Positions 33,589 to 47,051 of a stretch of 64,000 bases of DNA are shown here, piece by piece. The notes beneath the pieces were generated by a model. That model searched no databases. It was not told the origin of the DNA and saw nothing but the letters and a program-made list of their open reading frames with translations. The position numbers and the translations under genes are program-made. Origin of the DNA: a virus; IMG/VR virus record IMGVR_UViG_3300037067_026753. One strand, written 5' to 3'. Each line of letters starts with the position of its first letter. Position 1 is the first letter of the stretch.

Positions 33589-33687
33589 ATATCACCTCCT
33601 GTTACTTTCTATATCGTGTATTGTTTAAAAACAGCCAAGGGCGCCCAACCAATATGCGCCCCAGCTATAAAAGGTTTGCTACTTGCT

Positions 33688-34566
33688 TTAGTTCGCCAGT
33701 GCAACCGCCGTTTTCCAGGCTTCCTCTTTCAGGTAACTGGCGCCCAGCACGCTGTTTGCCAGCCGTGTTTCTGCATCCGCACTCCGGTAATGATCAATCC
33801 ACTCGATATAACCGTTGTACAAGTCGTACAACGTCCCCTGCCCGGTGCCCTTACCGGCTTCGTAAAGTTCGGTCACCTTGTTTATCAGGTTTTTCTGGCG
33901 GGTCCCGCCCTCTGCACCGCTGAAGCATTCCTTGATGAATTTGTCAACCATGGCCGCATCGCACACCACCTGTGCAAGCACCTTGCACTGTGCTTCGAAC
34001 TTGTCGAAGTAAGCGGTGCCCTGGGCAAGTATCCGCATGGCTTCACCGGCTTTGACTTCGCCGTTTTTGGTATGATGCACTTTGCATTTATTTTCGTTCG
34101 CCCAGCCCATCAGGCCGTTCTTGCATACCTGACGCCAGACGCGGTAGATCGCCGTGAAGGGATAGGAACCGTCGAAGGTGTTGATCAGCTGAATTTTACG
34201 GAATGTTTCGTCGCCCTTGCGTATTTCAACCGGGCTCCCCACCGTGGCTTCCAGGATGAGTTTGCGCCCGCCGTCGATCACGTATGCACTGGTGTACTTG
34301 GCGTTGTTCTGCTGACATGCGGTATCGAACCAGGCATATGCAAAGGAGTTCTGCAAGGGAGTATACCGATCTCCCACTAGCCCGATGATTGCGTGATTGT
34401 CGCTCCGCACCACGGCTTTGTTGTCCGGGATTTTGATACCTGCAGGTATGTCGCCGGCACCGAGAGTCTGTATGGGCACCAGTTCGGCGCGCCATTTTGA
34501 TTCGCTCTTATCGAGCGCTTCTTCTGCGGTTGTAACTCCGCCAAGGTCATAAAACGTTGCTTTCAT
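33688..34566 (-). CDS. hypothetical protein (292 aa), tentatively DUF932-like mobile-element protein
   Basis: Own element at 34567-34620. The family resemblance is from memory only and unverified. Confidence 0.4.
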   Translation of the reverse strand: MKATFYDLGGVTTAEEALDKSESKWRAELVPIQTLGAGDIPAGIKIPDNKAVVRSDNHAIIGLVGDRYTPLQNSFAYAWFDTACQQNNAKYTSAYVIDGGRKLILEATVGSPVEIRKGDETFRKIQLINTFDGSYPFTAIYRVWRQVCKNGLMGWANENKCKVHHTKNGEVKAGEAMRILAQGTAYFDKFEAQCKVLAQVVCDAAMVDKFIKECFSGAEGGTRQKNLINKVTELYEAGKGTGQGTLYDLYNGYIEWIDHYRSADAETRLANSVLGASYLKEEAWKTAVALAN

Positions 34567-34622
34567 AACTCTGCTCCTTGGTTAAGGGTTTTGTTGGTTA
34601 CAAAAGCAATATCGTGTGTTTC

Positions 34623-34964
34623 TCACCGTTTTGCCAAAACTGCTGCAACTTTATGGTGCAACGCCAACATACCCCGTATATCCTTAGCTGTCAGTCTGTG
34701 TGCAAACGGGTATTGATAAGCATCACCGAGTGGCAGGTGTATTAGTACTACCGGGGCTAAACTTACAATTATGTAGCGGGCATCTCCGTCAGCCACGCCA
34801 AAACTGATTTCTTCTCCGGCTTCGGGCCATTTACCATGCTCCTTTGCCCAGGCTTTCACCTGCTCAACAAAAGCATGTTCTCGTATTACGTTCTCTTCTC
34901 TGGGCAACTTATGGTCCCATTTGGGAGCCTCGATACCTTTTGGTGGGTCATATACTTTCCCCAT
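34623..34964 (-). CDS. cassette gene, hypothetical
   Basis: Element CGCGATATAGCAAATAACAAGGAGGGATA then ATG. Confidence 0.5.
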   Translation of the reverse strand: MGKVYDPPKGIEAPKWDHKLPREENVIREHAFVEQVKAWAKEHGKWPEAGEEISFGVADGDARYIIVSLAPVVLIHLPLGDAYQYPFAHRLTAKDIRGMLALHHKVAAVLAKR

Positions 34965-35026
34965 TATCCCTCCTTGTTATTTGCTATATCGCGTGCTGCT
35001 CATGGTTCTGCCTATACCCGAACCAC

Positions 35027-35248
35027 TCATAATCGCAAACAAGAGACTCGCACAAAATTCCTGCCTGTCTCGTACGCTCTTACTGGCTTGCCACATTTCG
35101 GGCAAATTTTGGGTGGCTCTAACTGGTCAGGCCATGTTACATAGCGACAAGAGCTACAAATTAGCTGGTGGTCAACATGCCCACCATACGCCTTCTTGTC
35201 ATATTCAAAAAGTTTACCACCACATTTCGGGCAAATCAAGTCGCTCAT
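35027..35248 (-). CDS. zinc-ribbon protein
   Basis: Two CPKCG…C…C motifs. SD GGAGAAGC. Confidence 0.45.
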   Translation of the reverse strand: MSDLICPKCGGKLFEYDKKAYGGHVDHQLICSSCRYVTWPDQLEPPKICPKCGKPVRAYETGRNFVRVSCLRL

Positions 35249-35478
35249 AATGCTTCTCCAGCTGCTTGTTCGGCATTTGACATGTCAGCCAAATGTTTGC
35301 CACGCTCAATAAAAAAACGTACTTGATCCCTGTACTTCTTGGGTATTGTGTCCCAAGTCTCTCGGATCCGCACCACTTCTTCGACTTTGTCAGTCCAGTG
35401 CGTAAATTCGTCAGCCTCATGTATGGGTAATCCCCAACTATTCTTGGGCTGATAATCGTCTTCTTTTTTCCGTTTCAT
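35245..35478 (-). CDS. hypothetical small protein
   Basis: Coupled within the 35.0-35.84 kb cassette. Confidence 0.4.
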   Translation of the reverse strand: MKRKKEDDYQPKNSWGLPIHEADEFTHWTDKVEEVVRIRETWDTIPKKYRDQVRFFIERGKHLADMSNAEQAAGEAL

Positions 35479-35837
35479 TTTTCGTACTCCGGCTTCCACA
35501 TTACAAAGTTCAAGTACTGCTGCTCAGTCCACTCGTACTCAATATCATTGCCGAAAGTCAACTGGTACTGTACAGCTTCAACAAGCGTATCATGCACTGC
35601 TTTTGTATAGGTTATCCCATACCTTGGTATGTTTTCACGCAGCCCGCTCGCCAAACTACAATTTATAAGGTATAGGATTTTATGGTTAGGCATGTCGAGC
35701 AAAGCGACGATCATGTTAGCCACTTTATGTGCCAACTCAATCATTACCTGTGGTATTGCTTCAGGGTGCTCAAGGTCAATCCCACACCCAGCCAAAAAAA
35801 CCTCGCACAACCGGCTACGTTCATTTTGCGTGTTCAT
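35475..35837 (-). CDS. cassette gene, hypothetical
   Basis: Element CACGATATGGTTAGAGTAATAAAGGAGAGAGT then ATG. Confidence 0.5.
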   Translation of the reverse strand: MNTQNERSRLCEVFLAGCGIDLEHPEAIPQVMIELAHKVANMIVALLDMPNHKILYLINCSLASGLRENIPRYGITYTKAVHDTLVEAVQYQLTFGNDIEYEWTEQQYLNFVMWKPEYEK

Positions 35838-35931
35838 ACTCTCTCCTTTATTACTCTAACCATATCGTGCGCTCAAAACAAAAAAGCCAAGGTTACCCCT
35901 GGCTCATTTTATACTTGTTAGTTCTTTATTT

Positions 35932-36846
35932 CTAAAAGTGTCGTTTAAATTCTTTTGCATTGTTTAAACCAACCAAGTAATCTTGAGCAGCTTTAAGCGT
36001 CAAGCTATGCGTACCCTGGAAACTCACATACCGTATTTCAACTTTGTTACCCTTGTGCGTTGCACTGGCGCCAAATAACGGCTGGTGCTCTCCTTGTTGC
36101 TTATTCCAGGGTGTCGCTTCCCATGTTCTCAAGTGTCCGTTTATTGCGTCAGCAACTTCCATAGCACACATCCCGTATACATCCTTAGTCACACGTGCTT
36201 TCGGCTTGTACCCGGTCACTACTGGTGCTGCACTCTTGTCTGCAAGTAAATTGCTTGCTTCACCTACCGGCAACAACTTAACCAGGGTACTCTCATCCAC
36301 GTTCAACCCGTGCTGAGTCTGCAAAAATACTCCCAGTTGGCAAGCAACCTGTGTTTGCATTGTGCCCAGTTCCTCTTCAGCCTGCTGCACAACGAAATCG
36401 TCATTCTCGCCAAAATGGCTCAATATGGTATCAGCCTGCGACAAAAAGTCTTCCAGTTTCCTCTTACCAGCACTCCCACCAGCCACAGCCTCGTACAAAT
36501 CTTTCTTCAAGTCGGCTATCCTGCTGCGCAGCTCCTGGCGGCTATCTCCCAAGCGCTCTTTCATCCGGCTCCGCACCGTTTTAGGCCGCTCAACTTGCTC
36601 CGTTATTATTTGGCCATCAAGCCCACGGTAACGCTCCAGGGTACAGGGCACCTCGCCATTGTACATAAGTGTACGGGTCATCTGCTCAAAAGTGAGCGCC
36701 ACCCTTGCCACCAGCCTGCCATCAGGGTCTTTTATTTCCATGCTTACGTAGTGGTGCTGGGGTACCATTGCTCCATTGAGCCAGCTACCACTGCTGCTGG
36801 TCATGGTCATACACACTGTGCTTGTTTCTTTGCCTTCCAATTTCAT
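35932..36846 (-). CDS. hypothetical protein (304 aa)
   Basis: ATGA coupling to the upstream gene. SD AGGGAGAGAGGGACC. Confidence 0.5.
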   Translation of the reverse strand: MKLEGKETSTVCMTMTSSSGSWLNGAMVPQHHYVSMEIKDPDGRLVARVALTFEQMTRTLMYNGEVPCTLERYRGLDGQIITEQVERPKTVRSRMKERLGDSRQELRSRIADLKKDLYEAVAGGSAGKRKLEDFLSQADTILSHFGENDDFVVQQAEEELGTMQTQVACQLGVFLQTQHGLNVDESTLVKLLPVGEASNLLADKSAAPVVTGYKPKARVTKDVYGMCAMEVADAINGHLRTWEATPWNKQQGEHQPLFGASATHKGNKVEIRYVSFQGTHSLTLKAAQDYLVGLNNAKEFKRHF

Positions 36847-37121
36847 ATTAGGTCCCTCTCTCCCTGTTCGTAAATACGAAAATCAGTTTCCTCTCGTGCA
36901 ATTTCATCAAGCGTAGTTTCGAGCTGCTTAAGCATTTGTTCAGCCGCTCGCTTGTCAGCAGCTATACGCATACACTTGTCGTATCGTTCACTGGGCATAC
37001 ACGGCCTGCACGTATCAAACTGGCATGTTTCAAACGTAAGTATGTCAATTTGAGTAATTTCGGGCAGTGCCTCAGCCGCCTGCTGCGCTCTCATTTCGCG
37101 TTCGTTGCTGTCATCCCACAT
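36843..37121 (-). CDS. cassette gene, hypothetical acidic protein
   Basis: Element CACGATATAGCAACTAACAAGGAGTTGTT then ATG. Confidence 0.5.
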   Translation of the reverse strand: MWDDSNEREMRAQQAAEALPEITQIDILTFETCQFDTCRPCMPSERYDKCMRIAADKRAAEQMLKQLETTLDEIAREETDFRIYEQGERDLI

Positions 37122-37163
37122 AACAACTCCTTGTTAGTTGCTATATCGTGTGAAGCCAGGCTC

Positions 37164-37268
37164 CTTACCAGGTCATGTTCTTAAACACCTGGCGGTGCTT
37201 GCCAAAACCGAAATCCAAATAAACCACGCACTTGGGCTGCATCTTAAAAAACTTACGTACCTGTGCCA
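37164..37268 (-). CDS. 34-aa micro-ORF (MAQVRKFFKMQPK…)
   Basis: SD AACAAGGAGCAAGTT precedes the ATG. Lies between the FtsK-like gene and the next cassette. Confidence 0.3.
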
Positions 37269-37290
37269 TAACTTGCTCCTTGTTTAGGTG

Positions 37291-38379
37291 TTACTTGCCA
37301 CATATTTTCTTTATATCAGGTTCGGGCACCCATATGCCCTGGTATTTTGTCAACTCTCCATTGCACTTAAATAATAACTCTCCAGCTCCTTTAAGGCGCT
37401 CAGCCCCCGGCTCATCAAGTATTATGCGACTATCTTGTCTGCTCTCTACTCTAAAAGCCACCCTTGCTGGCATGTTAGCCTTTATCAAACCTGTCATTAT
37501 TTCGACTACCGGGCGCTGTGTTGCCATTACAATATGCATACCAGCAGCCCTTGCCAACTGTGCCAACCGAGTTATTTTATCACTTATTGTCTTGTCTTCG
37601 CTCTGCATCATCAAGTCAGCCACCTCATCAATTACCAAAACTATATATGGTAACTTTGTTTTGGCTACTTGGTTATATGCATCAAGAGATTTAACGTCGT
37701 GCCTTGCAAGCAACTCATACCGGCTCTCCATTTCGTCTACCAAACTACTAAGCAAACCGCTTGCTTGGTCAAGTTTAGTAGCTATAGGTGCATACAAGTG
37801 CGGTACGCTCCGGTACAAAGCAAACTCAACCCGTTTTGGGTCAACCAATGCGAGTTGCACTTGCTCCGGCTGTAATTTATACAACAAACTCAGTATAGCA
37901 ACGTTCAAGAAAACAGATTTACCCGAGCCAGTAGTACCGGCTACCAATAAATGGGGCATACGGCTCAAATCAATTACCTTGTTTGCGCTCAATACTACTG
38001 GCAACCGCTCATTTGCTATATGATTAAAGGTTGTTATGCCCGTAAAATCAAGTGGAGTGGCATTAACTACAGGAGTGCTAACGTCTGGTGTAGTTGATGC
38101 CACTAAATCTGCAGGAAACATTATCAAATACTTGCTCACTTCAAAATCAATCTCTCCTATATATTTAAGGTCGCGCTCAATTTTATCAAGCTTACTCGCT
38201 ATCATCCCTACGTTCACACGTTTTATGCGCTCTACCTCGTCCTCCACCTCACTATAATGTAACCTGGCCTGCATTTGCCTTATGTCTAACGGGCTCGCGC
38301 CGCACCCTACCATGCTACTCAACGTTTTACACAACGCCCGGTCAACTTTCAAAGTTTCCAATATCTCCTTAAGATTCAT
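37291..38379 (-). CDS. FtsK/SpoIIIE-family DNA translocase ATPase (soluble motor domain only)
   Basis: Walker A LVAGTTGSGKSV. Walker B IVLVIDEVADLMM. FtsK signature ATQRP…ARVAFRV. No N-terminal TM region or gamma domain. Confidence 0.75.
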   Translation of the reverse strand: MNLKEILETLKVDRALCKTLSSMVGCGASPLDIRQMQARLHYSEVEDEVERIKRVNVGMIASKLDKIERDLKYIGEIDFEVSKYLIMFPADLVASTTPDVSTPVVNATPLDFTGITTFNHIANERLPVVLSANKVIDLSRMPHLLVAGTTGSGKSVFLNVAILSLLYKLQPEQVQLALVDPKRVEFALYRSVPHLYAPIATKLDQASGLLSSLVDEMESRYELLARHDVKSLDAYNQVAKTKLPYIVLVIDEVADLMMQSEDKTISDKITRLAQLARAAGMHIVMATQRPVVEIMTGLIKANMPARVAFRVESRQDSRIILDEPGAERLKGAGELLFKCNGELTKYQGIWVPEPDIKKICGK

Positions 38380-38425
38380 AGTCGCTCCACATGGGTTATT
38401 GGTTTACGTAGCGTTATATCGTGCG
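38380..38425 (-). promoter_or_regulatory. cassette promoter for the FtsK-like gene; a second gene-less copy lies at 38490-38515
   Basis: CACGATATAACGCTACG...GGAGCGACT then ATG. A tandem upstream copy reads CACGATATAGTGTATAGG. Confidence 0.5.
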
Positions 38426-38829
38426 CTTTTCCTTAACTAACCAAAACATACATGCTAAATACTCGCCAGGGTACTATACCCATGTTTACCCTATACACTA
38501 TATCGTGTGCTATATTGCTGGCAGCCACAACACACCCGCCAAAAATTGTACCCTGCCAAAACTATAACAAAACAGTTAAACAGCGCGCACAAGCAGCCAA
38601 ATAACAACTCTAACACACTAAAAGCTATCTAGCGTTGTAGCGCTATCACCACATGAATTACAAGATTTAGAGCAACCTACTTGTGGAATTTACTAACATA
38701 TTTACTAGCATAAAAGGTAGGAATATAGCACAACATATAACTCATACAAAAAGAGCGGAGCAAACCGTGGTAGCACTCCATAAGTTCACCCCGCCCAGTA
38801 TTGCATAAGAGTTACGAAAGGAGAAGCTC

Positions 38830-39246
38830 TTACGCAAAATATTTGGTTACCAACTCGTTCAACTCGTCCTGGCTGGTCACTTTCCCCAGCATACGCGTTT
38901 TCCCCAGGTGGTTCTTCTTCGCTTCTTCCTCGCTTACTGCTTTAAAACCCTTCAACCCGGTTACCTTATGGGTCAAACCCACACTGGCTCCACGTACCCA
39001 CATACGTTTCTCTCCGGCTTCTGCCGTAATTACGTACTTGGTCTCATTCACGGTCACGCCCTTGGTTGCCTTAATTTTCAAAGGCTCCTTCTTCACACGC
39101 GGCTGCTTTGCCTTCTTGTCCTTGTCTACCGGCTTAGTCTGCTTGGGTTCCGGTTTTTTCCCTGTTGCGGCTTTCTTCGCCATTTCGTCTTCTCCTCCTA
39201 CCGGCTGCGTATCTCCCGCCTCCGGAATCGTTCCTGTATCGCCCAT
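38830..39246 (-). CDS. lysine-rich histone-like (H1/Hc1-like) DNA-binding protein
   Basis: N-terminal AKKAATGKKPEPKQTKPVDKDKKAKQPRVKK tail, followed by a small globular C-terminal domain. Confidence 0.45.
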   Translation of the reverse strand: MGDTGTIPEAGDTQPVGGEDEMAKKAATGKKPEPKQTKPVDKDKKAKQPRVKKEPLKIKATKGVTVNETKYVITAEAGEKRMWVRGASVGLTHKVTGLKGFKAVSEEEAKKNHLGKTRMLGKVTSQDELNELVTKYFA

Positions 39247-39337
39247 ATCGTCAACTCCTTCTAGAAAATCAGTTGAACTAGCATCTACAGCATAAATTTA
39301 TATCGTGCACTCAATATTATGTCTTTTATTTTACAGT

Positions 39338-39568
39338 TTACCCAGCAAATCTATGTGCAGCCTCTATCTCTTCTCTGCTCAATATACTCTCTTCCTTATA
39401 AACTATAACTACCGGCGCTCTATCCTCCTCCAACCCAGTATTATAAGCAACACACTCTACTACATGCAATGCCTTCTCAAAGCGCTCCTGATATAGCCGC
39501 GCCTCTTCTCTCCCAAACTCCTTATTCACCGCAAGCAGCTCCCTCAATTTTTTCGTTTCTATCAGCAT
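39338..39568 (-). CDS. hypothetical small protein
   Basis: SD AGGAGGAATAGTT then ATG. Confidence 0.45.
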   Translation of the reverse strand: MLIETKKLRELLAVNKEFGREEARLYQERFEKALHVVECVAYNTGLEEDRAPVVIVYKEESILSREEIEAAHRFAG

Positions 39569-39570
39569 AA

Positions 39571-39782
39571 CTATTCCTCCTGCTGCTCACACACGTGCGC
39601 AACAAACTTGTCCAAATTTATCTCTTCGTTCAACTTATCTTCATTCCCTCTATACTTACACCCTTTACACTTTTTATCAGCTCCCGGCTCCTTACAAAAC
39701 GAAAGCCGAAAGATAATATTCGTGGCAAACAAACCACAACGATACTCCTTCTCCCACCTACGCTTTCTTTTCATACTACTCA
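39571..39782 (-). CDS. Cys-rich small protein (start MSSMKRKRR or MKRKRR)
   Basis: GCGATATGAGTAGTATG is a leaderless-type configuration. CKGCKYRG motif. Confidence 0.35.
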
Positions 39783-39829
39783 TATCGCCCGAACATCTAT
39801 TACATTGCCAACACAGAACGACACCTAGC

Positions 39830-39875
39830 AGACGCACGCGCCTGCACGCGCTACGCGCGTACGCGAAGCTCTCGA
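39830..39875. repeat. GC-rich palindromic cluster (CACGCGC x2 plus TACGCGCGTA)
   Basis: cgcacgcgcctgcacgcgctacgcgcgtacgcg. Related ACGCGC clusters occur at 21230-21340 and 23090-23150. Confidence 0.5.
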
Positions 39876-40079
39876 GTTTTTCAAACTTGCTCGATATGCC
39901 CGAGCCACAACCAACAAAAAACAAGCAACAAAAAAACTCCCTCAACAACCAGCCACATGCCCGACACACCCGAGCAAACTTGCATAACTATTTACCAGTG
40001 CACTTGAATGCGCATATACGCGCTTGCAATTCTCATATACATTATGCGTTCTAGAACACGTTTATAGGGTTATAGGAAC

Positions 40080-40210
40080 TGAACAGCAAAAACAGGGCCC
40101 TAGTTTCTTATAGCTGTTCAGTCTTATAGCCGTTCAGCATAGCTGCTCAAGCTGTTCTCTTAGCGGGTTCTGTTTAGCTGCTCTCGTTCTTTAAGCTGTT
40201 TAAAGCCGTT
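40080..40210. repeat. iteron-like direct repeats (about 8 copies of AGCYGYTC at 11-16 nt spacing); candidate replication origin
   Basis: tagctgttcag / tagccgttcag / tagctgctcaag / ctgttctc / tagctgctctcg / aagctgttt / agccgtttt. Located in the divergent intergenic region. Confidence 0.5.
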
Positions 40211-40352
40211 TTAGGTCTTGTATAGTTGTTCTACCATGTTTTGTAGTGAGTTTGTTGTTTCCTTTTTTGTTTGTTTGGATGTCGTGTGTTTTTTTTTAGA
40301 TTGCCATGTTTTTATAGTTTATAATTTCTTGTTGTTGAATGGGGGGTTTTGT

Positions 40353-41186
40353 ATGTTTGAGCGTAGGGAGTTTCGTGTTGGTTGGTTGCGGGCGTGGTGG
40401 GTGTGGTGTAGGGAGGTAGATCGAGTTAGTAGGTGGAGGGAAGTTGTAGTTATAAAGCGTAGGCTTGAGTGTGAGTTGGTAGAGCGGGCGTTTGTGCGTA
40501 TGAATAGGGTTGGTTGGACGGCGATGTTGGGTTGTGATGATTATGACCGGTGTGTTGAGTTGGGCGTGAGTTTGAATGTGGCTGGGGTGCATTTGGTGCG
40601 GGATGGTAGTGTGGGGCGTGGTTGTACGTGGTGGGAGGCGCCGGTGGTGGTTAGGGAAGCAGCTGGTTTGGAGCCCTTGTATGGGCATGTGGGTAGTAGA
40701 GCTGTAGGTGTTACAGGTATGCAGGGTGTGACTGGCGCGGGAGGGTTGTGGGATAACCGTAATAATGACGTTTGGTATGAGCCTACATTACGTGGTACTG
40801 GTTTTGGGGATATAGTTGAGCCTGTTGCAATAGGTGACGTTAGTTATGCTGATTATTTTGGTGGTAGGCCGGTGGAGGTGCAGGTAAGTTTTGACGTGGT
40901 TAAGAATAAGCAGTTAGTGGAGCAGGGCCCTAAGGTTAATAGGCGTATGGGTTGGGTGGTAAATGAGCGTATAGAGCAGCAGCCCAAGCCTGAGCAGCCA
41001 GTAATGGGACAGCATATAGAGCAGCCGGGGTGTGTGCATACAAAGCCCGTTGTAGTGGCACACCCGTTGGTGAGCGACCCGGCTGCAAGGGTTAGGGCCC
41101 GTTGGGCTGAGTTATTGCGGTTAGCAGACGCAACACATAATGAAAACGAGCGTACTGGTGATGATACCCGTGAGCAGGGTGCATAG
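40353..41186 (+). CDS. G/V/W-rich hypothetical protein next to the iterons (possible Rep?); start uncertain
   Basis: 322-aa ORF from 40218. The best ATG with a G-rich SD is at 40353. Composition is very unusual because the strand is C-depleted. Confidence 0.35.
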   Translation: MFERREFRVGWLRAWWVWCREVDRVSRWREVVVIKRRLECELVERAFVRMNRVGWTAMLGCDDYDRCVELGVSLNVAGVHLVRDGSVGRGCTWWEAPVVVREAAGLEPLYGHVGSRAVGVTGMQGVTGAGGLWDNRNNDVWYEPTLRGTGFGDIVEPVAIGDVSYADYFGGRPVEVQVSFDVVKNKQLVEQGPKVNRRMGWVVNERIEQQPKPEQPVMGQHIEQPGCVHTKPVVVAHPLVSDPAARVRARWAELLRLADATHNENERTGDDTREQGA

Positions 41187-41541
41187 AGGGTGATATATAG
41201 ATAGTTGGGTATGAGCCGTGAGGAGGAGTTATGTTGTGGGAGAGCTTGAAGCGTTATTATTTGTAGTTGATTTGCACTATACAGAGCATGCCGTTGATAA
41301 GCTTGTAGATAAGCTTGACTTGACAAATTACGCTATGGTGCGTATGAAGGAGGAGGGTGGATATGCGCAGGTTTAAATAGTGCAAGCTGCTGGCCATACC
41401 CTGAGTTTTATGTAGTAGAGTATAGAGTGTGGTTTTTGTTGTAGTTGTGGTAAAAATAGTATACCAATAGATATAACCATAGTAAGCAGCTTGAAGTAGT
41501 GGGTAATATGTATGATAACCCAGAGTTGAGGGAGCAGGTAG

Positions 41542-41736
41542 TTGGGAAAGAGTAGTGAACCAATTAGAATGTGGACAGTTTTAAGTGATTGTGCAATATG
41601 CCATATTACCGTGCCGGGGGCGCCTTATTTGAGTACTGATATTAGGTATACGCTTGACGAATATAAACGCATAATGGAGTATGAGTTACGCCAGCAGAAA
41701 CGGAAGCGGCGAGCACATAGCACACATTTTAAATAA
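41542..41736 (+). CDS. hypothetical small protein
   Basis: ORF at the head of the rightward operon. Confidence 0.35.
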   Translation: MGKSSEPIRMWTVLSDCAICHITVPGAPYLSTDIRYTLDEYKRIMEYELRQQKRKRRAHSTHFK

Positions 41737-41746
41737 GGAGTTTTTA

Positions 41747-41902
41747 TGCAGTTTGGTTGCGGGCATAGCATAGTAAAGTGTAAGGCATGTGGTAAGGTGA
41801 TAAGCCAGTGCCGGTGTTTGAATGCAAATAAGCCGGTGGTGTGGAGCGTGTGCGACAAATGTAAGGCTGGTGTTGACCCTAAGCAAGAGGTAAGGGGATG
41901 AG
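41747..41902 (+). CDS. 51-aa Cys-rich zinc-binding protein
   Basis: CGHSIVKCKACGKVISQCRC…CDKCKAG. SD aaggag. Confidence 0.35.
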
Positions 41903-41904
41903 CT

Positions 41905-42183
41905 GTGTGCGTGATAACAAGAAAAGCAGATGACGTAGTGGTGAGCATTAGTTTGATACCTGGGTTAGCCAGACTGATGAATGATAGATTACAGGGTGGG
42001 CAGTATGTGTTGTTTTGCGAAGATTGTGCCCGTAAAGCTGGATTAGAGAGCAGTTTTGAAAATAGTATTATAGGCGTGATAGCAGGACAGGGCGTGTGTT
42101 GTCAGGGTTGTGATAGGGATATAGGTGGTAGAGATGTTTATTTGCCCGATAAGCGTTTGAAATTTAAGTGGATAGCAAAATAA
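41905..42183 (+). CDS. KFKWLA-family protein A (C-terminal …RLKFKWIAK)
   Basis: Cys-rich, with the C-terminal motif shared by 43933..44331, 44344..44937 and 44941..45219. Confidence 0.45.
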   Translation: MCVITRKADDVVVSISLIPGLARLMNDRLQGGQYVLFCEDCARKAGLESSFENSIIGVIAGQGVCCQGCDRDIGGRDVYLPDKRLKFKWIAK

Positions 42184-42801
42184 ATGTTGAGTGAACGTTG
42201 TAAGTATTGTGTGCATAGAGATGATAATGAGAGGGTTTCACACTGGCAACAAAATTTTAGTTGTATAAAGTGTGCTGGTTTGAGCAGCTTGGTTTTTTTT
42301 AAGTTGGATAGAACACAGATTAATAAAACGGTAGTTGAAAAACCAAGGCCAAGTGCTGCTGGACGGTTCAAGTTTGTGTTTAAGGATATGTATGATGAGA
42401 AGAAGCAAGACGATAACCGTAAGCAGTACGTACAGGATTTAGTAAACAAGTTAGCTGCTCTACATCGTAGCCAGTTGACACGGTTTGTAGGTTTGTTAGA
42501 GCGCATAAAAGAGTTTAAGGATGTGGAGCCGTGGCAGTGGGTGTGGTATGACTGTGATAACCCGATAACATGGCCAGAGCTCGGTGTGCCCGTGCTTGTT
42601 ATGGTAGGGCAAGCTTATAACCGGTATTATATGGTTTTAGAGCGCAGGGTGTTAGAGCGTAATGGGAGTGTGGATAAGTGTTGCTGGTTTATGCATGTTG
42701 AAAATTGGTTTTTGCGTGACGATATGAACGTGGTGTGTTGGTGTTTAATAGGCCCACCGCCCGTATTACCTGCACCAGTGCCGACAGCGATACCTATATG
42801 A
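42184..42801 (+). CDS. hypothetical protein (205 aa), N-terminally Cys-rich
   Basis: CKYCVHRDD…CIKCAG. Confidence 0.45.
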   Translation: MLSERCKYCVHRDDNERVSHWQQNFSCIKCAGLSSLVFFKLDRTQINKTVVEKPRPSAAGRFKFVFKDMYDEKKQDDNRKQYVQDLVNKLAALHRSQLTRFVGLLERIKEFKDVEPWQWVWYDCDNPITWPELGVPVLVMVGQAYNRYYMVLERRVLERNGSVDKCCWFMHVENWFLRDDMNVVCWCLIGPPPVLPAPVPTAIPI

Positions 42802-43010
42802 ATATACGTAAACTAGCAAGACGTAAACCGGCAACAAGAATAGCTGTACCAGAAGAGGTAAAAAGTAAAGTAATACGTGTGCGTGTAACTGAGCAAGAAT
42901 TTAAGACAATATATAGTGCTGCTAAACAGCGTGGAGTAACAGTAAGTATGTTGTTGATTGAAACTGTATTGAAAAAAATAAAAAGGGAGTTAAAAAATGG
43001 ATGTGCTTGA
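42799..43010 (+). CDS. ribbon-helix-helix (CopG/MobC-like) DNA-binding protein
   Basis: IRVRVTEQEFKTIYSAAKQRGVTVSMLLIETVLKKI shows the beta-strand/helix/helix pattern of RHH proteins. Confidence 0.45.
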
Positions 43011-43155
43011 TGGTATTGAAAAGTTTGCTGACAGAGTGGGTAAGCTATTTGGGAGTAAGGGGTGGGTGATAAAAGCATTTGTTATGTTTGCGTGCGTGCT
43101 TGTGTGTGGCGGGTTGATAGTGATAGGAGCACTTGCAAAGAAGGATAGCAAATGA
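42997..43155 (+). CDS. 52-aa membrane peptide
   Basis: SD aaaagggag. One TM helix (VIKAFVMFACVLVCGGLIVIGAL). Confidence 0.35.
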   Translation: MDVLDGIEKFADRVGKLFGSKGWVIKAFVMFACVLVCGGLIVIGALAKKDSK

Positions 43156-43367
43156 GTGCTGACAATAGCGAAATGATGAAGGAGCTGATAGAAGCACTTT
43201 GTTTTTATGCTGACCCTGATACTTATTTTGCTATAGGTTTTTTTCCTGATTTGCCGTGTGGTGAGTTTATTAAAGATTTTGACGAGTCGAAAAAGCCTGG
43301 AGCAAGGGCCCGTAGTGTAATAAAAAAATACCAAGCAGAGTTACAGGGGTTATATGACGATAGATGA
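43152..43367 (+). CDS. hypothetical small protein
   Basis: ATGA coupling. Confidence 0.4.
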   Translation: MSADNSEMMKELIEALCFYADPDTYFAIGFFPDLPCGEFIKDFDESKKPGARARSVIKKYQAELQGLYDDR

Positions 43368-43623
43368 TGGCGAATATTACAGTGCGATACCGTATGTGCA
43401 GCTACGTAGACGCAGGGTAAGGCAGCCTGAAAAGAAGGAAATACGGCTTGACGTTGATGCATTTAGACAGGAGTTGCTTGATAATATAAAGCAGAACCCA
43501 ACACAGATAGGTGATAAGCATATTGTAATGTGTTGGCCTGAGACAGAATCAACACGCCGTGTAAGGTTGAAGAAGTTTTTAGAAAAGCGTTTTTGTGTTG
43601 CGCCCTTGTTTAGACGAGGATGA
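43354..43623 (+). CDS. hypothetical small protein
   Basis: Overlapping coupled ORF. Confidence 0.4.
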   Translation: MTIDDGEYYSAIPYVQLRRRRVRQPEKKEIRLDVDAFRQELLDNIKQNPTQIGDKHIVMCWPETESTRRVRLKKFLEKRFCVAPLFRRG

Positions 43624-43756
43624 TAGCAATATACATGTGCGCTGGTTGTTTGAAAAGACTGAAAATGGTTTTTTGGTGGCAGGTTTGAGTTTGTGAAAGC
43701 AGAGAAAAGGGTACAAAAGCAGCAAATTGAAAAAAATAAATTGAGGTTTATAGTTA

Positions 43757-43936
43757 ATGAAAACTGAGGAAGTGATAAGTGCTTTGAGCGAGGCTTGTAA
43801 GTGTGGTGATAGTGCAGGTTTGCGGCAGTACCACCAGCAGACAGCACCGCATATAAGTTATGTTGAGTGGCTTGAACGTAGAGTAGTTATATTGACTGAG
43901 TATATAGTTGAGAAAGCATTGAAAGAGCAAAAATGA
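43757..43936 (+). CDS. 59-aa hypothetical protein
   Basis: ATG with its stop overlapping the next start. Confidence 0.3.
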   Translation: MKTEEVISALSEACKCGDSAGLRQYHQQTAPHISYVEWLERRVVILTEYIVEKALKEQK

Positions 43937-44331
43937 CCATAGATGATTTGTGGCGCCCAAAGCCGAATCTGTGTGTGGCAAAAGATCTTGACGTCGAAAT
44001 GTATTATGAGGACGTAATAAGTTGTATACAGAGTAACCCAAGGCAGAATGAAAATAAGGACCGTGTGTTGTGCAGGTACCAGAATCGAAATGTTTTGTTG
44101 GTTAGGTTTGTTAGAGAGGGCTATAATTATTTTATTTTGAAGACATGGGGCTTTAAGGAAGCTTGTTCTGATTTTAGTATCAATTATAAGTTGTTGCATG
44201 TGCGTTGGGTGTTAGAGTATAGAGCAAGGCCCGATGATATAGGTAGGTTTGAGTTGGTGAGAGAAGATGATGGAGATAGAGTGCAAGTGAAAGAGCAGCC
44301 TAAAATGAAGTTTAAGTGGCTGGCAGAATAG
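43933..44331 (+). CDS. KFKWLA-family protein B (C-terminal …KMKFKWLAE)
   Basis: Shared C-terminal motif. Confidence 0.45.
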   Translation: MTIDDLWRPKPNLCVAKDLDVEMYYEDVISCIQSNPRQNENKDRVLCRYQNRNVLLVRFVREGYNYFILKTWGFKEACSDFSINYKLLHVRWVLEYRARPDDIGRFELVREDDGDRVQVKEQPKMKFKWLAE

Positions 44332-44343
44332 AAAGTTTGACAA

Positions 44344-44937
44344 ATGGCACGGCTTGGTGAGCGTAAGAGTATACGGTTAGAGAGCAATGATGGATTGGCG
44401 ACTATAAGAGCAAACTTGTTAGCTGACCCGCAGCAGACAAGCCGTAGGAAACTTATGTTTGGGAAAAGCACTGGTATAACCTATGCTAATTTTAGTTTGC
44501 CGGTTTGGTTAAAGCGCGGGTATGAGTTGTACCGGGTGCGTAATAGTATAATCGAGTGGGACAGCACGAGCCGGACGTTTAGGTTAGTGCCCAAGGTGAC
44601 AATGGATACATTGGTGGCTACGAGCGATGTGACTAAGAATAAGTTTAAATGGTTAGTTGATGAAACATTGGTTACATTAAAAAACCGCGATTTGGGTGAT
44701 ATAAGTAATGATATCCATCGATACTATGATGTAATTACAAAGCCGCCAGCGACAAAGCCTTCAAGTGGTGGACAGTCGATACCTTGGAATTATATAACAA
44801 CAAGCGAGGTGAATACGAATCCGTGTAATTGTTGTGGACTTTATGAGGTTTGTGAATCTTGTTGTGATGCTCAGTATCGTTTTGTATTTGACGATAGACC
44901 CGAGCCAAAGCCTAAGTTTGCATTTGTGTTTGGGTGA
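44344..44937 (+). CDS. KFKWLA-family protein C (two fused units; internal …NKFKWLVDE, C-terminal …PKFAFVFG)
   Basis: Shared motif at mid-protein and a related one at the C-terminus. Confidence 0.45.
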   Translation: MARLGERKSIRLESNDGLATIRANLLADPQQTSRRKLMFGKSTGITYANFSLPVWLKRGYELYRVRNSIIEWDSTSRTFRLVPKVTMDTLVATSDVTKNKFKWLVDETLVTLKNRDLGDISNDIHRYYDVITKPPATKPSSGGQSIPWNYITTSEVNTNPCNCCGLYEVCESCCDAQYRFVFDDRPEPKPKFAFVFG

Positions 44938-44940
44938 GTT

Positions 44941-45219
44941 ATGTGGACTGTGCGTGTAAATGATGGTTTTTGTACATGGGAGTATGAAATGACAGGTGAA
45001 CATAGTAGCGTTGCAAATACAAGTATAGCTAATGTGATTAATGCAATTACTAAGAATACTGGTTTGATAGTTACAAAAGCTACTTTTATTAATGCAATTG
45101 AGCCGCAACAAGTGGAGTCGCAGGTAGACAAGCAGAATAAGCAGAACATAAAGTTTAAAAGTGGAAAAATAGGTGACCCAAAAATAAATGTAAAGTTTAA
45201 ATTTTTAGCACAGGAGTGA
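44941..45219 (+). CDS. KFKWLA-family protein D (C-terminal …NVKFKFLAQE)
   Basis: Shared C-terminal motif. Confidence 0.45.
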   Translation: MWTVRVNDGFCTWEYEMTGEHSSVANTSIANVINAITKNTGLIVTKATFINAIEPQQVESQVDKQNKQNIKFKSGKIGDPKINVKFKFLAQE

Positions 45220-45222
45220 AGT

Positions 45223-45534
45223 ATGGTAAAAGAGATAGTGGAGAATTTTGCAAAGAGTGGTGTGTCCCAGGCTGCTTTAGAGCGTATACTTGATTTGGGC
45301 CAGGGAGATTTGAGCAAAGAAGAGACGCCAGAAATGATAGCTCTTATGCGTATTGTGGCGACATATCCTTGGTTGCTTAGTGTAGCTGAGCATCATTATG
45401 ACGAAAAGTATGCAAATAGAGTCGTGTTGCATGTGGGTGTAGATGCATTGCTCGATATGCAAGAGCAATTAGCAGGTAGTGAGTGCAAGTGCGAAAAAGA
45501 GCAGCCAGCAAGTGAAGATGCAGGTAAGAGCTAA
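45223..45534 (+). CDS. hypothetical acidic protein
   Basis: Intact ORF. Confidence 0.4.
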   Translation: MVKEIVENFAKSGVSQAALERILDLGQGDLSKEETPEMIALMRIVATYPWLLSVAEHHYDEKYANRVVLHVGVDALLDMQEQLAGSECKCEKEQPASEDAGKS

Positions 45535-45598
45535 TTTGCATTGATTTTATTTTTATTATAGATTGCGCGCAAGCGCGCACAGAGAGGGATTAGTAGTC

Positions 45599-46024
45599 AT
45601 GTGGTTGGATACATTTAATGATACTGAAATAAATGTAGGCATATGTGAAGCTTGTATGCAGGAGTTTTTCCCTGATGATAAACTTATGGAGAGTGCTGCT
45701 TCTTATCTGTGCCCTATATGTATGAGTGTAATTCAAGTAAGGGGCAAGATGGGCGTGCTTAAGTTGAGGAAAAGCGTATTTGAAGCACTCATGAACACAA
45801 AAACTAAACGTTTTATATTGTGCAAGCGTTGTGCTGACAGCAGGAATTTAACCAGCGAGAATATGACAAGTCCGTTCACAGACAAAAACAAGTATGTATG
45901 TCGGTTGTGTGGTAATAAAGAGGGACATGCTGAATATATGTTGCCGAATAAAGAAGCAGATTTGTTGTTGAGAAAAAAGAACTCGAAAACAATTGACAAG
46001 TTAAAATTTCGTTTTATACAGTGA
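45599..46024 (+). CDS. zinc-finger protein (start MWLDTFND)
   Basis: CEACMQEF…CPICMSV and CKRCADS…CRLCG motifs. SD agagaggga. Preceded by a TATTATAGAT box and a GCGCGCAAGCGCGC hairpin. Confidence 0.45.
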   Translation: MWLDTFNDTEINVGICEACMQEFFPDDKLMESAASYLCPICMSVIQVRGKMGVLKLRKSVFEALMNTKTKRFILCKRCADSRNLTSENMTSPFTDKNKYVCRLCGNKEGHAEYMLPNKEADLLLRKKNSKTIDKLKFRFIQ

Positions 46025-46031
46025 GTGTTAA

Positions 46032-46337
46032 ATGGCAAGAATTTGTGGCAAGCGTGGTAGAGCGATACCGTCAAGTAAGGTTTTTTGTTTCGATTGTGAG
46101 GTGAGCATGTTGGAGAAGCAGAAGAGCCCTGATGAAGAATTGAGAATGAGAGCCAATGAAATAATGTTGGGTTCAAAAGGTTTCATGTTGTTTGCTGTTA
46201 CTCATTCTGGCGCAATAGAAGCTGTAGGTGATACAACTAGACTTACGACAGTAGAACAACTTGGACTTGAGTACTATGTGCAAGAATTTAATCCGATTGA
46301 AATTGATGAAGACGAAGACGACCGAGCACCTTTTTGA
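46032..46337 (+). CDS. hypothetical protein
   Basis: Intact ORF. Confidence 0.4.
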   Translation: MARICGKRGRAIPSSKVFCFDCEVSMLEKQKSPDEELRMRANEIMLGSKGFMLFAVTHSGAIEAVGDTTRLTTVEQLGLEYYVQEFNPIEIDEDEDDRAPF

Positions 46338-46349
46338 ACAGGAGAAAAT

Positions 46350-46847
46350 GTGGCTCTAGCTTTAAATATAGGTTGCCATGACATACATATTGCTGGTATG
46401 GTAAATGTAGACAATGACGCAGCAATGAAGCCTGATTTGTTATTAGATTGTACGAAATTGACAAGCAAGTTTGAAAAGAACAGCGTTGATTTTGTGTATG
46501 CCGGGCATTTTTTTGAGCATTTTGATGTGCATGTAGGCAAACAAATTGTAATCGATATTTTTACTATATTGAAGGATTATGGTGTTCTAGTTGCTACAGT
46601 ACCAGATTATACAAAATGTTTTGGTATGAAGATTGAGGAAGCTGAGCGAATTATTATAGCAGTGGGTACCCATAAGGTACTTATGAACATAGATAGATTG
46701 AGAGATTATTTGTGTTGTGCTGGTTTTAAAACTGTGGTACAAGCAAAGCCGAGTGAGTTAGCACATTGTCCGTTTCCTAATGTAGAGTGGCAGACAAGTA
46801 TAATAGGCATAAAGCACCCGCATATAAATTTCCATGGTATAGCATAG
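46350..46847 (+). CDS. class I SAM-dependent methyltransferase (GTG start)
   Basis: Motif I LNIGCHD (hhhhGCG-like) and VDFVYAGHFFEHF (post-II). SD ggag 5 nt upstream of the GTG. Confidence 0.5.
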   Translation: MALALNIGCHDIHIAGMVNVDNDAAMKPDLLLDCTKLTSKFEKNSVDFVYAGHFFEHFDVHVGKQIVIDIFTILKDYGVLVATVPDYTKCFGMKIEEAERIIIAVGTHKVLMNIDRLRDYLCCAGFKTVVQAKPSELAHCPFPNVEWQTSIIGIKHPHINFHGIA

Positions 46848-47051
46848 TTACCAGTACCATGTGTTGTTTTCATCTACGCTTGTGTCAATGCGGCCATTGA
46901 TTCTATCTGATATGTTTGTTATGATTATGCTCAAGAATGCAGCAATGCCTATAATCCATAAAATAGTTTGTAACATAAGATTAATATACTACAATTAATA
47001 GGCTTTTGAATCAGTTCGAGTAGGTACGGGCACATAGGTAATTATGGTGTT

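Follow-up and report, generated by a model that had tools for sequence, protein, structure and literature searches.

Theta origins of the iteron type carry at least three direct repeats, each about 17-22 bp long, set at regular intervals of about 22 bp and helically phased, to which a Rep initiator binds. In phage T4, oriF and oriG each combine a promoter with an unwinding element and are R-loop primed, and oriE has short iterons and the protein RepEB; we know of no kilobase-scale compositional gradient at any T4 origin. In vertebrate mitochondrial DNA the strand composition at a site reflects how long that site remains single-stranded. Where origins of huge phages and metagenome-derived genomes have been defined by skew, the skew is roughly uniform along each replichore. 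For uncultivated huge phages the origins have been inferred almost wholly from such genome-wide skew, and their cis-elements and initiators are essentially uncharacterised.

The locus described here is a non-coding gap of about 570 bp (39.8-40.35 kb) in a 64-kb stretch of DNA that was analysed as a whole and is called the window. Its architecture is common to four related lineages, namely the window, L037, L039 and L046, which are also the four in which the skew flip was compared; the marker proteins of the last three are 63-85% identical to those of the window. The window carries rIIA, rIIB and FtsK-like ATPase genes and is syntenic with the 195-kb IMG/VR contig L052; it is phage-derived and has relatives among huge phages. 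Stretches homologous to the Cys-rich protein that opens the left arm (Table 1) were found in the huge-phage contig L052, in L040 and in L050. L052 and L040 are relatives without the locus, in which the repeats and conserved blocks are missing and the FtsK-like gene is kept, and L008 is a 95%-identical variant of the window. A megablast of 33-47 kb against phage and plasmid collections gave no match. An island with att repeats or an integrase at its borders was rejected, as no flanking direct repeat above 13 nt turned up and no integrase was recognised. A CUA-anticodon tRNA is present, yet the flanks give no signal of recoded stop codons. In our best reading, the gap serves this phage-derived genome as a cis-acting control locus and is conserved as such.

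Table 1. Features at and around the locus, in coordinates of the 64-kb window
Feature	Position	Strand	Remarks
Bipolar G-enrichment domain	33256..53231	.	centred on 40059
FtsK-like gene	37291-38379		adjacent operon, 2 kb away; FtsK/SpoIIIE motor, E 6e-51
First left-arm gene	39571..39786	-	71-aa basic Cys-rich protein (KRKRRW...C..CKYRGNED)
GC-rich palindrome block	39835..39876	.	CACGCGC x2, TACGCGCGTA, CGCGTACGCG, AGCTCTCGAG
CACGCGC copies	39835-39841 and 39845-39851		in GC-rich block
TACGCGCGTA	39852-39861		in GC-rich block
CGCGTACGCG	39856-39865		second 10-bp palindrome; overlaps TACGCGCGTA
CTCGAG	39871-39876		in GC-rich block
Small palindrome/hairpin GCTCG-N7-CGAGC	39889..39905	.	includes CCCGAGC box; folding z -3.45
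Candidate leftward promoter TTGCTG-17-TATAAA	40061..40089	-	sole match in 64-kb window
Conserved core	40079..40121	.	inverted repeat copy, invariant segment and first direct repeat in succession
Inverted repeat copy CTGAACAGC	40079-40087		single inverted copy
Invariant segment CAGCA.A.AC..GGCCCTA	40084-40102		four lineages
First direct repeat GCTGTTCAG	40113-40121		fixed offset +27 to +29 in core
Direct-repeat array, consensus TAGCYGTTC	40112..40231	+	7 exact AGCYGYTY and 2 degenerate copies
T-rich, AT-rich tract	40232..40352	+	70-82% AT; -10-like box and Shine-Dalgarno-like GGGGGG inside
TTGCCA	40301-40306		in AT-rich tract
TATAGT	40313-40318		in AT-rich tract
TATAAT, -10-like box	40320-40325		in AT-rich tract
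GGGGGG, Shine-Dalgarno-like	40341-40346		for ORF 40353
ORF, first right-arm gene	40353-41186	+	starts 7 nt past GGGGGG run
NikA-like ribbon-helix-helix protein	42798-43010		right arm; E 1e-7

An earlier note on this DNA had proposed a candidate origin built from a GC palindrome at 39830-39875, about eight direct repeats spaced 11-16 nt apart, an AT-rich stretch with a TTGCCA box at 40290-40340 and, directly downstream, ORF 40353..41186. The palindromic block, the box and the ORF are all present (Table 1), and the number of repeats held up, but their spacing is 9-26 nt. Within the GC-rich block the columns CGCGCGTACGCGA.AGC.C.CGAG are invariant in the four-lineage alignment, and CGCGTACGCG is found a single time at each locus of the window, L037, L038, L039 and L046, whereas the relatives without the locus do not have it. 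The block is conserved as sequence and not as structure, because folded as a single strand it does no better than shuffles (z -0.11) and no compensatory pairs were found. A scan with the pattern GCGCGTACGCGAWAGCNCNCGAG of this block returned no matches in viral contigs and only chance matches in high-GC DNA among metagenome contigs. The small hairpin that follows is also kept in the lineage alignment; a second CCCGAGC, at 39969-39975, lies inside an A/C-rich insertion specific to the window.

At the conserved core the single inverted copy tracks the repeat sequence of each lineage (GAACAGC, GAGCAGC, GATCAGC and GGGCAGC); the repeat version is GCTGCCC in L039 and GCTGCTC in L046. The core of L046 forms a perfect 8+1+8 palindrome, ATACTAGG-C-CCTAGTAT; in the window the 9-bp arms of the core can pair as a single-stranded DNA hairpin (-10.2 kcal/mol, z -3.05), but neither L037 nor L046 preserves the stem by compensatory change. 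The exact AGCYGYTY copies, all on the + strand, start at 40112, 40128, 40141, 40150, 40176, 40194 and 40204, with degenerate copies at 40163 and 40224; over the whole 64 kb and both strands the motif was observed 28 times against about 16 expected. The repeat core measures 8-9 bp and the start-to-start spacing is irregular (16, 13, 9, 26, 18 and 10 nt). A single relaxed pattern counts 8 copies in the window, 4 in L037, 4-5 in L046, 2-4 in L039 and 6 in L008, whose array has deletions of 11 and 20 nt. The earlier note held that coding repeats would refute its proposal; the repeats are non-coding, since no ORF of at least 20 aa spans 40114-40217, and a coding origin for them was rejected. A known or structured RNA (leader or sRNA) was likewise rejected: the sole Rfam match was noise (E 0.75), and RNAalifold found 0 compensatory pairs on the left leader, where the covariation term was +0.5.

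As compared to the iteron theta origins (lambda ori, P1 oriR, SPP1 oriL, pPS10, F and R6K), the locus is alike in its clustered direct repeats beside an AT-rich tract, such as serves those origins for unwinding, in the lineage-specificity of the repeats and in a cumulative skew minimum at the site; the inverted repeat copy beside a candidate promoter also recalls the inverted repeats through which plasmid rep genes are autoregulated. It differs in most of what makes an iteron array classic, as the earlier note had called this arrangement. In place of regular repeats of 17-22 bp there are 2-8 copies of a short, irregularly spaced core. The DnaA box TTATCCACA has no match at up to one mismatch in any of the four lineages and none even at up to two mismatches in 39700-40400 of the window, where GATC is also lacking, and no recognisable Rep-like initiator gene adjoins the repeats. 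Nor do the repeats always lie next to the first gene of the arm, as had been supposed: in L037 and L046 they are 0.6-0.75 kb away from the ORF with extra DNA between, in which no shared protein was found, so that a conserved reverse-strand gene there was rejected.

The region 40200-40349 reaches 66-70% AT per 50-nt bin as compared to about 55% in its surroundings, the AT-richest 40-mers (82.5% AT) begin at 40287-40291, and T-rich tracts likewise follow the repeats in L037, L039 and L046; such a tract might possibly act as a DNA unwinding element. A TATAAT or TATAAA box stands 15-31 nt upstream of the ATG of the ORF in all four lineages. TTGCCA and TATAAT do not form a canonical sigma-70 pair, because the spacer is only 13 nt, and a consensus promoter scan reported neither this pair nor any canonical promoter for ORF 40353. 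In the other direction, the candidate promoter TTGCTG-17-TATAAA would start left-arm transcription near 40055; it ends 2-3 nt from the skew minimum, and L037, L038 and L039 have the pattern in the homologous position. Its -35 box holds only 3/6 consensus bases, the spacer has lost 3 nt in L008, and L046 has no match to the pattern. A terminator-like site is found at 33225-33212, near the left end of the skew domain, and none between the + arm and the - genes at 46.5-47.5 kb.

ORF 40353 is a real gene. The N-terminal domain of its protein, about 90 aa long (MFERxEF..RRLE..DYDRCVELG.S), is conserved, and after it come a variable region of Gly-X-Y-like repeats and the conserved motif PKVNRRMGW; the copies vary in length and one is frameshifted. 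Sequence and profile searches against Pfam, PHROG and PDB gave no match, a profile search with the four-lineage family gave nothing usable, and among 1.8-5.8 billion proteins the only relatives were near-identical copies and one of 47% identity. Two AlphaFold runs were of low confidence (pLDDT 34.5 and 45.6). The suggestion that this ORF might be the initiator found no backing: no similarity to Rep, DnaA or primase came out of these searches, the family is tiny, and the protein carries the variable Gly-X-Y-like region. The DYDRCVELG.S segment resembles a helix-turn-helix by eye only, and the segment after it is common to the window and L037, which have the same repeat, and different in L039 and L046; the protein is at most a weak candidate for binding the repeats.

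The earlier note had also proposed looking for a skew inflection at about 40 kb, and one is there. GC skew passes from -0.41 (39-40 kb) to +0.47 (40-41 kb), with extremes of -0.6 and +0.7 in 200-nt windows and a cumulative minimum at 40059; in L037, L039 and L046 it flips in the same way, from -0.4 to -0.5 up to +0.5, and in all four lineages the minimum lies no more than about 110 nt from the core CAGCA.A.AC..GGCCCTA. To the left of 40059 the - strand is G-rich and the enrichment fades by about 34 kb; to the right the + strand is G-rich and the enrichment fades by about 53 kb, a decay over about 6 kb leftward and 13 kb rightward. On the outward-reading 5'->3' strand synonymous sites show a strong gain of G, mostly at the cost of A and T. 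Among orthologues of the four lineages the coding-strand third-position skew is +0.71 to +0.94 at 0.4-0.6 kb from the locus, +0.33 to +0.68 at 2.2 kb (the FtsK-like gene), +0.24 to +0.55 at 3.7 kb and about 0 at 5.9 kb.

The relatives provide a built-in comparison. In L052 the same genes are arrayed co-directionally, with no locus and no gradient, and the skew is flat (+0.08, -0.29, +0.17, +0.14 and +0.09); in L040, also without the locus, a matching gradient is absent and only two short low-GC3 genes are high. G3 is 0.34-0.38 in the locus-bearing lineages as compared to 0.10-0.12 in L052 and L040. C3 is 0.07-0.15 against 0.09-0.10 in these relatives, so C is not depleted, and third-position T is lower, not higher, where the locus is present. 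A strand-specific G gain of this kind, on a kilobase scale around a locus, is unusually strong.

On the right side the asymmetry follows the DNA strand and not the coding sense, with read-through transcription as a caveat, because + strand G3 is similar in + genes (0.31; 40.3-46.8 kb) and - genes (0.33; 47.0-50.5 kb) and falls with distance, to 0.20 and then 0.15 beyond 50.5 kb. Skew and distance are correlated over 28 genes of both orientations on this side (Spearman rho -0.91), and the genes at 47-50.5 kb differ from those at 54.7-58 kb (Fisher p = 7e-7). The C3-rich codon usage of the 47-53 kb genes could nonetheless be inherited rather than imposed, because these genes have no clear orthologues elsewhere. 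As in other uncultivated huge phages, a cumulative GC-skew minimum places the candidate origin here, but the skew is local, extreme and graded, as compared to a flat +0.2 over 41 kb in the 462-kb huge phage LR756500.1; ordinary fork asymmetry alone is insufficient for it. Vertebrate mitochondrial DNA is a closer likeness in that synonymous composition changes monotonically with distance from the start, with G gained on the presumed exposed strand. It differs in that the present gradient is bipolar and extends 6-13 kb per side in a double-stranded, phage-like genome, and in that C is not depleted relative to relatives and T falls rather than rises.

The reading that fits best is that the locus is an origin of bidirectional DNA replication, to which we would give a probability of roughly 45% by compositional inference. 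Besides the gradient it has in its favor the cis architecture (invariant blocks, lineage-specific repeats with a matching inverted copy, and an AT-rich tract beside them) and a cumulative skew minimum that, subject to the read-through caveat, is independent of gene orientation. A sequence-specific protein would bind the inverted and direct TAGCYGTTC copies around the invariant, dyad-like core AAAC.GGGCCCTAGTTT; since the repeat sequences are lineage-specific, a co-evolving binding protein is implied. The adjoining T-rich tract would then melt and two leading strands would begin, running outward. A strand-asymmetric process would proceed from the locus both ways, and the outward strand, as lagging-strand template or displaced strand, would be exposed repeatedly and for longest close to the start, leaving the G footprint.

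Such an origin might possibly be activated or primed by the divergent promoters of the same gap, as at the T4 origins, to which the window is alike in its rIIA and rIIB genes, its short repeats and the coincidence of candidate origin and candidate promoters; the G-rich non-template strand here would favor persistent RNA-DNA hybrids. Unlike the case of T4, MotA/AsiA-type factors and T4 replication proteins were not identified in the window, and the promoters are tentative. Against an origin stand the short irregular repeats, the lack of DnaA boxes and the finding that no Rep, helicase, primase or polymerase was recognised across 18-53 kb. What survives of the candidate origin first proposed is a conserved non-coding locus with a skew of origin polarity and a gradient; the classic iteron picture does not, and the ORF as initiator is not supported. 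We consider origin function plausible, with very strong divergent transcription as a serious rival. If the G gain is a footprint of replication, it could be of use in finding start sites in metagenomic genomes.

That rival, which we regard as possible but doubtful, takes the gap to be a divergent early-promoter/operator region with no origin function, its repeats and palindromes being operator or activator sites. The G-rich outward strands would result from exposure of an R-loop-prone non-template strand, with transcription running on rightward into the genes at 47-53 kb. Very strong divergent transcription that reads through to the right could mimic the gradient, because the flip coincides exactly with the divergence of the two transcription units and no terminator was found near 47 kb, as compared to the terminator-like site at the left end of the domain. 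The TTGCTG-17-TATAAA candidate at the skew minimum, the -10-like box kept in 4/4 lineages, a core with operator-like dyad symmetry (perfect in L046), the missing replication genes and a right arm of 16 small genes with hardly any recognisable function, as in phage early genes, would all suit it. However, at 47-50.5 kb it is the template strand of the genes that has the G excess, at the level of the + arm, and because of this the reading needs a putative antisense read-through of at least 6 kb. Transcription-linked asymmetry as described in bacteria and phages is, to our knowledge, far smaller than third-position skews of 0.5-0.9, and the leftward candidate promoter has a weak -35 box, a spacer broken in L008 and no match in L046, while the scan gave no canonical promoter for the ORF. 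Were transcription nevertheless the cause, a virus would here display transcription-associated mutation in an extreme form.

Returning to replication, we speculate, as an improbable variant, that the locus is a start zone of phage replication of an undescribed type. From the divergent promoters two leading strands would set out in opposite directions, and several kilobases would pass before lagging-strand synthesis began or a high-fidelity polymerase took over. Repeated in the course of evolution, this would produce a bipolar, distance-graded synonymous G gain, in which G3 climbs from about 0.11 to about 0.36 and the skew at third positions reaches +0.9. If this were true, origins and their mode of initiation could be readable from sequence in uncultivated phages, and either the MFER...DYDRCVELG ORFan or one of the small left-operon proteins would represent an origin-binding factor of a new type. 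At about 570 bp the locus is a well-defined target, with invariant blocks, lineage-specific repeats and natural copy-number variants.

Alternatively, the locus might mark physical DNA ends (a terminal-repeat junction, a pac or cos site, or a concatemer junction), where end-initiated strand displacement, displacing each 5'-ended strand inward, would give the same bipolar gradient. The gradient does peak at the locus and decay inward on both sides, the gap is dense in short repeats and palindromes, as terminase-binding pac regions are, and TACGCGCGTA is also the centre of the phage N15 telomere-resolution site. We hold this to be quite unlikely, however, since at least four independent assemblies are continuous across 40.06 kb and their contigs end elsewhere (at about 32.5, 34.8, 37.1, 43.3 and 47.4 kb of the window), and the window gave no recognisable terminase, protelomerase, terminal protein or protein-primed polymerase. 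Telomere-resolution sites have a dyad of 22-56 bp, and such a site was rejected here, the palindromes of the gap being only 10 bp.

A rolling-circle double-strand origin or transfer origin is very improbable. The conserved loop between inverted arms would hold its nick site, with the direct repeats as binding locus of a nicking protein (as in pMV158 and geminiviruses), perhaps aided by the NikA-like protein; the conserved loop, the lineage-specific arms, the direct repeats next to them and the presence of that ribbon-helix-helix protein in the right arm agree with this. The window has the hairpin but no detectable HUH nuclease or relaxase, the stem lacks compensatory change in L037 or L046, and single-strand exposure would predict neither a sign flip nor a bipolar skew.

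The repeats bring to mind a last comparison, for TraB, the transfer protein of Streptomyces plasmids, binds 8-bp repeats. A loading or recognition array for the FtsK-like translocase, or a partition centromere, with KOPS- or TraB-like 8-mers, is hardly likely: the 8-mers are clustered, in one orientation and irregularly spaced near an operon with an FtsK/SpoIIIE motor gene, but the protein stops right after its motor (residues 133-291 of 362) with no gamma-type winged-helix domain, L052 and L040 retain the gene without the repeats or conserved blocks, and the compositional gradient is left unexplained. The FtsK-like protein had no match among viral contigs; among genome contigs it has only relatives of 27-53% identity, in unrelated bacterial genomes, which are probably cellular FtsK homologues other than the element studied here.

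We rank a replication origin first among the readings of the control gap, the non-coding stretch at 39.8-40.35 kb between a left arm on the - strand and a right arm on the +, because the polarity and decay of the skew fit one and the cis-elements are suitable; we put its probability at about 0.45. GC skew passes from -0.41 at 39-40 kb to +0.47 at 40-41 kb, with extremes of -0.63 and +0.73 in 200-nt windows, and the window's cumulative minimum lies there, at 40059. An inflection near 40 kb had been set beforehand as a test of the origin proposed in an earlier note, and its presence favours that proposal. In four of four lineages the minimum falls at most about 110 nt from a conserved core, CAGCA.A.AC..GGCCCTA.

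The most informative result is a compositional gradient, measured as coding-strand third-codon-position skew in orthologous left-arm genes of the four lineages. This skew drops steadily away from the sign change (the flip): it is +0.71 to +0.94 at 0.4-0.6 kb, +0.45 to +0.82 at 1 kb, +0.33 to +0.68 at 2.2 kb (the FtsK-like gene), +0.24 to +0.55 at 3.7 kb and -0.16 to +0.08 at 5.9 kb (DUF932), with rIIA and rIIB at -0.03 to -0.27. The gradient is absent from L052, a 194.6-kb IMG/VR viral contig with the same genes but without the locus, where the same orthologues give +0.08, -0.29, +0.17, +0.14 and +0.09. In L040, another such relative, the two genes nearest the corresponding end reach +0.45 and +0.75 on very few G/C third positions (GC3 0.10-0.20), and values for its FtsK-like and 304-aa genes are close to 0. 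Near the locus, G makes up 0.34-0.38 of third positions, compared with 0.10-0.12 in both L052 and L040; near the locus, too, A is reduced from 0.38-0.44 to 0.22-0.26 and T by about 0.1, with no change in C. On the right side of the flip, + strand third-position skew falls with distance across 28 genes of both orientations (rho = -0.91, p = 1e-11), and the genes at 47-50.5 kb differ from those at 54.7-58 kb (Fisher p = 7e-7). Given this correlation and the G levels in the table, the enrichment tracks the DNA strand through the orientation switch. In another huge phage the skew is flat, only +0.2 across 41 kb, which sets the local, graded pattern apart from the ordinary replichore signal.

Features of the control gap and its surroundings, with third-position G (G3) on the + strand
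Feature	Position	Strand	Detail
rIIB	28711-29796		phrog_609, E 2e-56
rIIA	30683-32860		phrog_612, E 1e-69, full length
Terminator-like site	33225-33212		
DUF932 protein	33688-34566		
FtsK/SpoIIIE-type ATPase	37291-38379		Pfam E 6e-51
CACGCGC x2	39835-39841, 39845-39851		read from sequence
TACGCGCGTA	39852-39861		overlaps CGCGTACGCG
Second 10-bp palindrome, CGCGTACGCG	39856-39865		overlaps TACGCGCGTA
CTCGAG	39871-39876		after the two palindromes
Candidate promoter TTGCTG-17-TATAAA	40089-40061		leftward
Inverted repeat copy, CTGAACAGC	40079-40087		n=1
Invariant core	40084-40102		alignment A2
AGCYGYTY direct repeats	40112-40211	+	7 exact copies
Degenerate AGCYGYTY copies	40163, 40224		n=2
T-rich tract	3' of repeat array		66-82% AT
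ORF	40353-41186	+	start 7 nt past GGGGGG run
Genes	40.3-46.8 kb	+	G3 0.31
Genes	47.0-50.5 kb	-	G3 0.33
Genes	50.5-53.2 kb	-	G3 0.20
Genes	54.7-58.1 kb	-	G3 0.15

The palindrome, repeats, AT-rich tract and ORF that the earlier note read from the sequence are all present, with a repeat spacing of 9-26 nt in place of the 11-16 nt it gave. No ORF of at least 20 aa covers the array, so the repeats are not part of a coding sequence, which the note had named as something that would refute its proposal. AGCYGYTY occurs 28 times on both strands of the 64-kb window, against about 16 expected. Only 13 nt separate the TTGCCA box from TATAAT, a pair that a consensus promoter scan did not report; DnaA boxes and GATC sites are absent from the locus. 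An RNA reading is unsupported: the gap gives only noise in Rfam, compensatory pairs are missing from the left leader, and shuffled sequence folds as well as the GC block does. We also note that 39830-40110 is unusually rich in palindromes of at least 6 bp (CGTACG, CTCGAG, GTGCAC, TGCGCA, GTTCTAGAAC, GGGCCC), and that most repeats of the gap also contain AGCT; several dimeric binding proteins might account for this density, though another cause is possible.

Three further lineages were reached through homologues of a 304-aa marker protein (phage family phrog_6452), and they share the window's arrangement of an FtsK arm, a non-coding gap and an MFER... ORF: L037/L038 (85% marker identity), L046 (65%) and L039 (63%). 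Their alignment, A2, reveals invariant blocks amid otherwise diverged DNA, namely CGCGCGTACGCGA.AGC.C.CGAG, CGAT...CCCGAGC and the core, none of which was found in L040 or L052, which have the genes but no divergent gap. From the start of the core to that of the first direct repeat is always 27-29 nt, and the copy number of further repeats differs, from 2 to 8. Repeat sequence differs by lineage and, in step with it, so does the lone inverted copy on the left of the core: GCYGTTC in the window and L037 (inverted GAACAGC and GAGCAGC, respectively), GCTGCTC or GTTGCTC in L046 (GATCAGC) and GCTGCCC in L039 (GGGCAGC). Such paired change is the pattern expected of putative binding sites that coevolve with a protein. 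The core is dyad-like; its L046 version, ATACTAGG-C-CCTAGTAT, is perfectly palindromic, the two halves having changed in a matching way. L008, a 95%-identical variant, has deletions of 11 nt and 20 nt within the array and of 3 nt beside the core.

In our interpretation, a strand-asymmetric process spreads both ways from about 40.06 kb and raises the G content of the strand whose 5' to 3' direction points outward. Bacterial replication origins have a well-established G excess on the leading strand, and the polarity at this locus is the same. A start zone in which the outward strand is exposed longest near the start would fit the decay with distance; such exposure might arise, for instance, from delayed lagging-strand synthesis or from R-loop priming, the mode used at oriF and oriG of T4. 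The arrangement of inverted and direct repeats around a dyad core, adjoined by an AT-rich tract, likewise suits an origin. No replication proteins were recognised in 18-53 kb.

Alternatively, transcription might drive the skew pattern. The flip is located where two operons diverge, and a candidate leftward promoter, unique in the window and conserved in L037, L038 and L039, ends 2-3 nt from the skew minimum; it is nonetheless weak, its -35 matching at 3/6 bases, with no match in L046 and a spacer 3 nt shorter in L008. A terminator-like site lies close to the left end of the skew domain, and none was found between the + arm and the 47-53 kb genes, so that rightward read-through could mimic orientation independence; these genes have no clear orthologues to compare. 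Less likely readings are an FtsK-like motor loading site or centromere, since relatives have the gene but lack the repeats, a rolling-circle or transfer origin since no nuclease was found and bipolar skew is unexpected, and genome termini or a pac site since several assemblies continue through the site and the palindromes are just 10 bp.

ORF 40353-41186 is a real gene. Its N-terminal domain of about 90 aa is common to the four lineages with 31 invariant positions (MFER.E..V.W.R...RRLE..L.E...DYDRCVELG.S), as is a PKVNRRMGW motif, and mid-protein lies a Gly-X-Y-like region that varies: it reads GVTGMQGVTGAGG in the window, holds about 17 GYA repeats in L037 (gene at 597-1463) and has an in-frame 51-nt deletion in L008. 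In the copy in GCA_028717785.1 one extra nucleotide within a G run near 41026 cuts the protein to 247 aa. The earlier note had suggested this ORF as the initiator, which is unsupported because no relatives were detected outside this small group, searches against Rep, DnaA, RepA and primase families found no similarity, and the ORF lies 587 nt from the repeats in L037 and 747 nt in L046, where it has a -10-like box of its own. The AlphaFold models, at pLDDT 34.5 and 45.6, could not be used. As a lead, the DYDRCVELG.S segment resembles a helix-turn-helix by eye; the segment after it is common to the two lineages whose repeat is alike, and differs in the other two. The origin interpretation is partly supported, and more strongly than when first proposed: a conserved, orientation-crossing, distance-graded asymmetry centred on a conserved core speaks for it, and the classic iteron origin with an adjacent initiator does not fit.

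GC content is about 45% across 18-53 kb and about 33% in the flanks. In L039 it decreases from 0.47 beside the gap to 0.34-0.36 at 8-14 kb, and this distance-linked fall, as in the window at 33-47 kb, comes mainly from G gain on the outward strand. Among phages, rIIA finds its best match in a 462-kb uncultured huge phage, and L052 is syntenic with 27.5-39.8 kb, with a further match at 57.4-58.0 kb in the right flank, which is low in GC; everything right of about 18 kb therefore belongs to a phage-like genome that has relatives among huge phages. Cell-like genes (glutamate-receptor-type channel, Na/Ca exchanger, rhomboid, GNAT) lie in the left flank (0.4-18 kb), which may be host DNA, and contigs with the identical region reach into the flanks. 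All syntenic genes of L052 are co-oriented and the divergent gap is absent; by this comparison we infer that the gap and 16 small + strand genes (39.8-47.0 kb) resemble an insertion into a co-directional array. The + arm matches a NikA-like ribbon-helix-helix protein and, weakly, a methyltransferase, and otherwise has no recognisable functions. One copy of the element is in a contig deposited within a bacterial MAG, GCA_028717785.1. The first gene left of the gap (39571-39786, -) encodes a small basic Cys-rich protein, KRKRRW..C..CKYRGNED, widely conserved in related phage contigs (L039 1207-1434; L050 2894-3040); an additional ORF of 43-47 aa, missing from the window, lies upstream of it in L037, L039 and L046.

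A second - to + compositional switch of the same polarity lies at 17912-18213 (centre about 18149), in the 300-nt gap of convergent genes 17321-17911 (+) and 18214-18438 (-), and coincides with the GC step from 33% to 45%. It contains a 46-nt repeat x2 (17934, 18027), CCCTATCAA x3 and a 12-nt inverted repeat (18116/18184); genes on its left have negative skew whichever way they face, and more strongly so nearer 18 kb. The switch may mark the junction of a prophage with its host, or else another centre like that at 40.06 kb. A canonical-looking tRNA with anticodon CUA (amber suppressor) lies at 6913-6985 (-; Rfam tRNA 60.8 bits; ARAGORN label Pyl), and ORF lengths within the window show no sign of TAG as a sense codon. 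Type IV pilin-like proteins occur within the phage-like gene array at 47447-50543 (-), with an N-terminal methylation motif and a PilW-like domain at 49039-50142, beside a 526-aa protein. A homing-endonuclease-like gene (DUF7487; phrog_3339) belongs to the pair 59100-60026 / 58551-59099, and its neighbour has a homologue beside a related module in L040 (30% GC).
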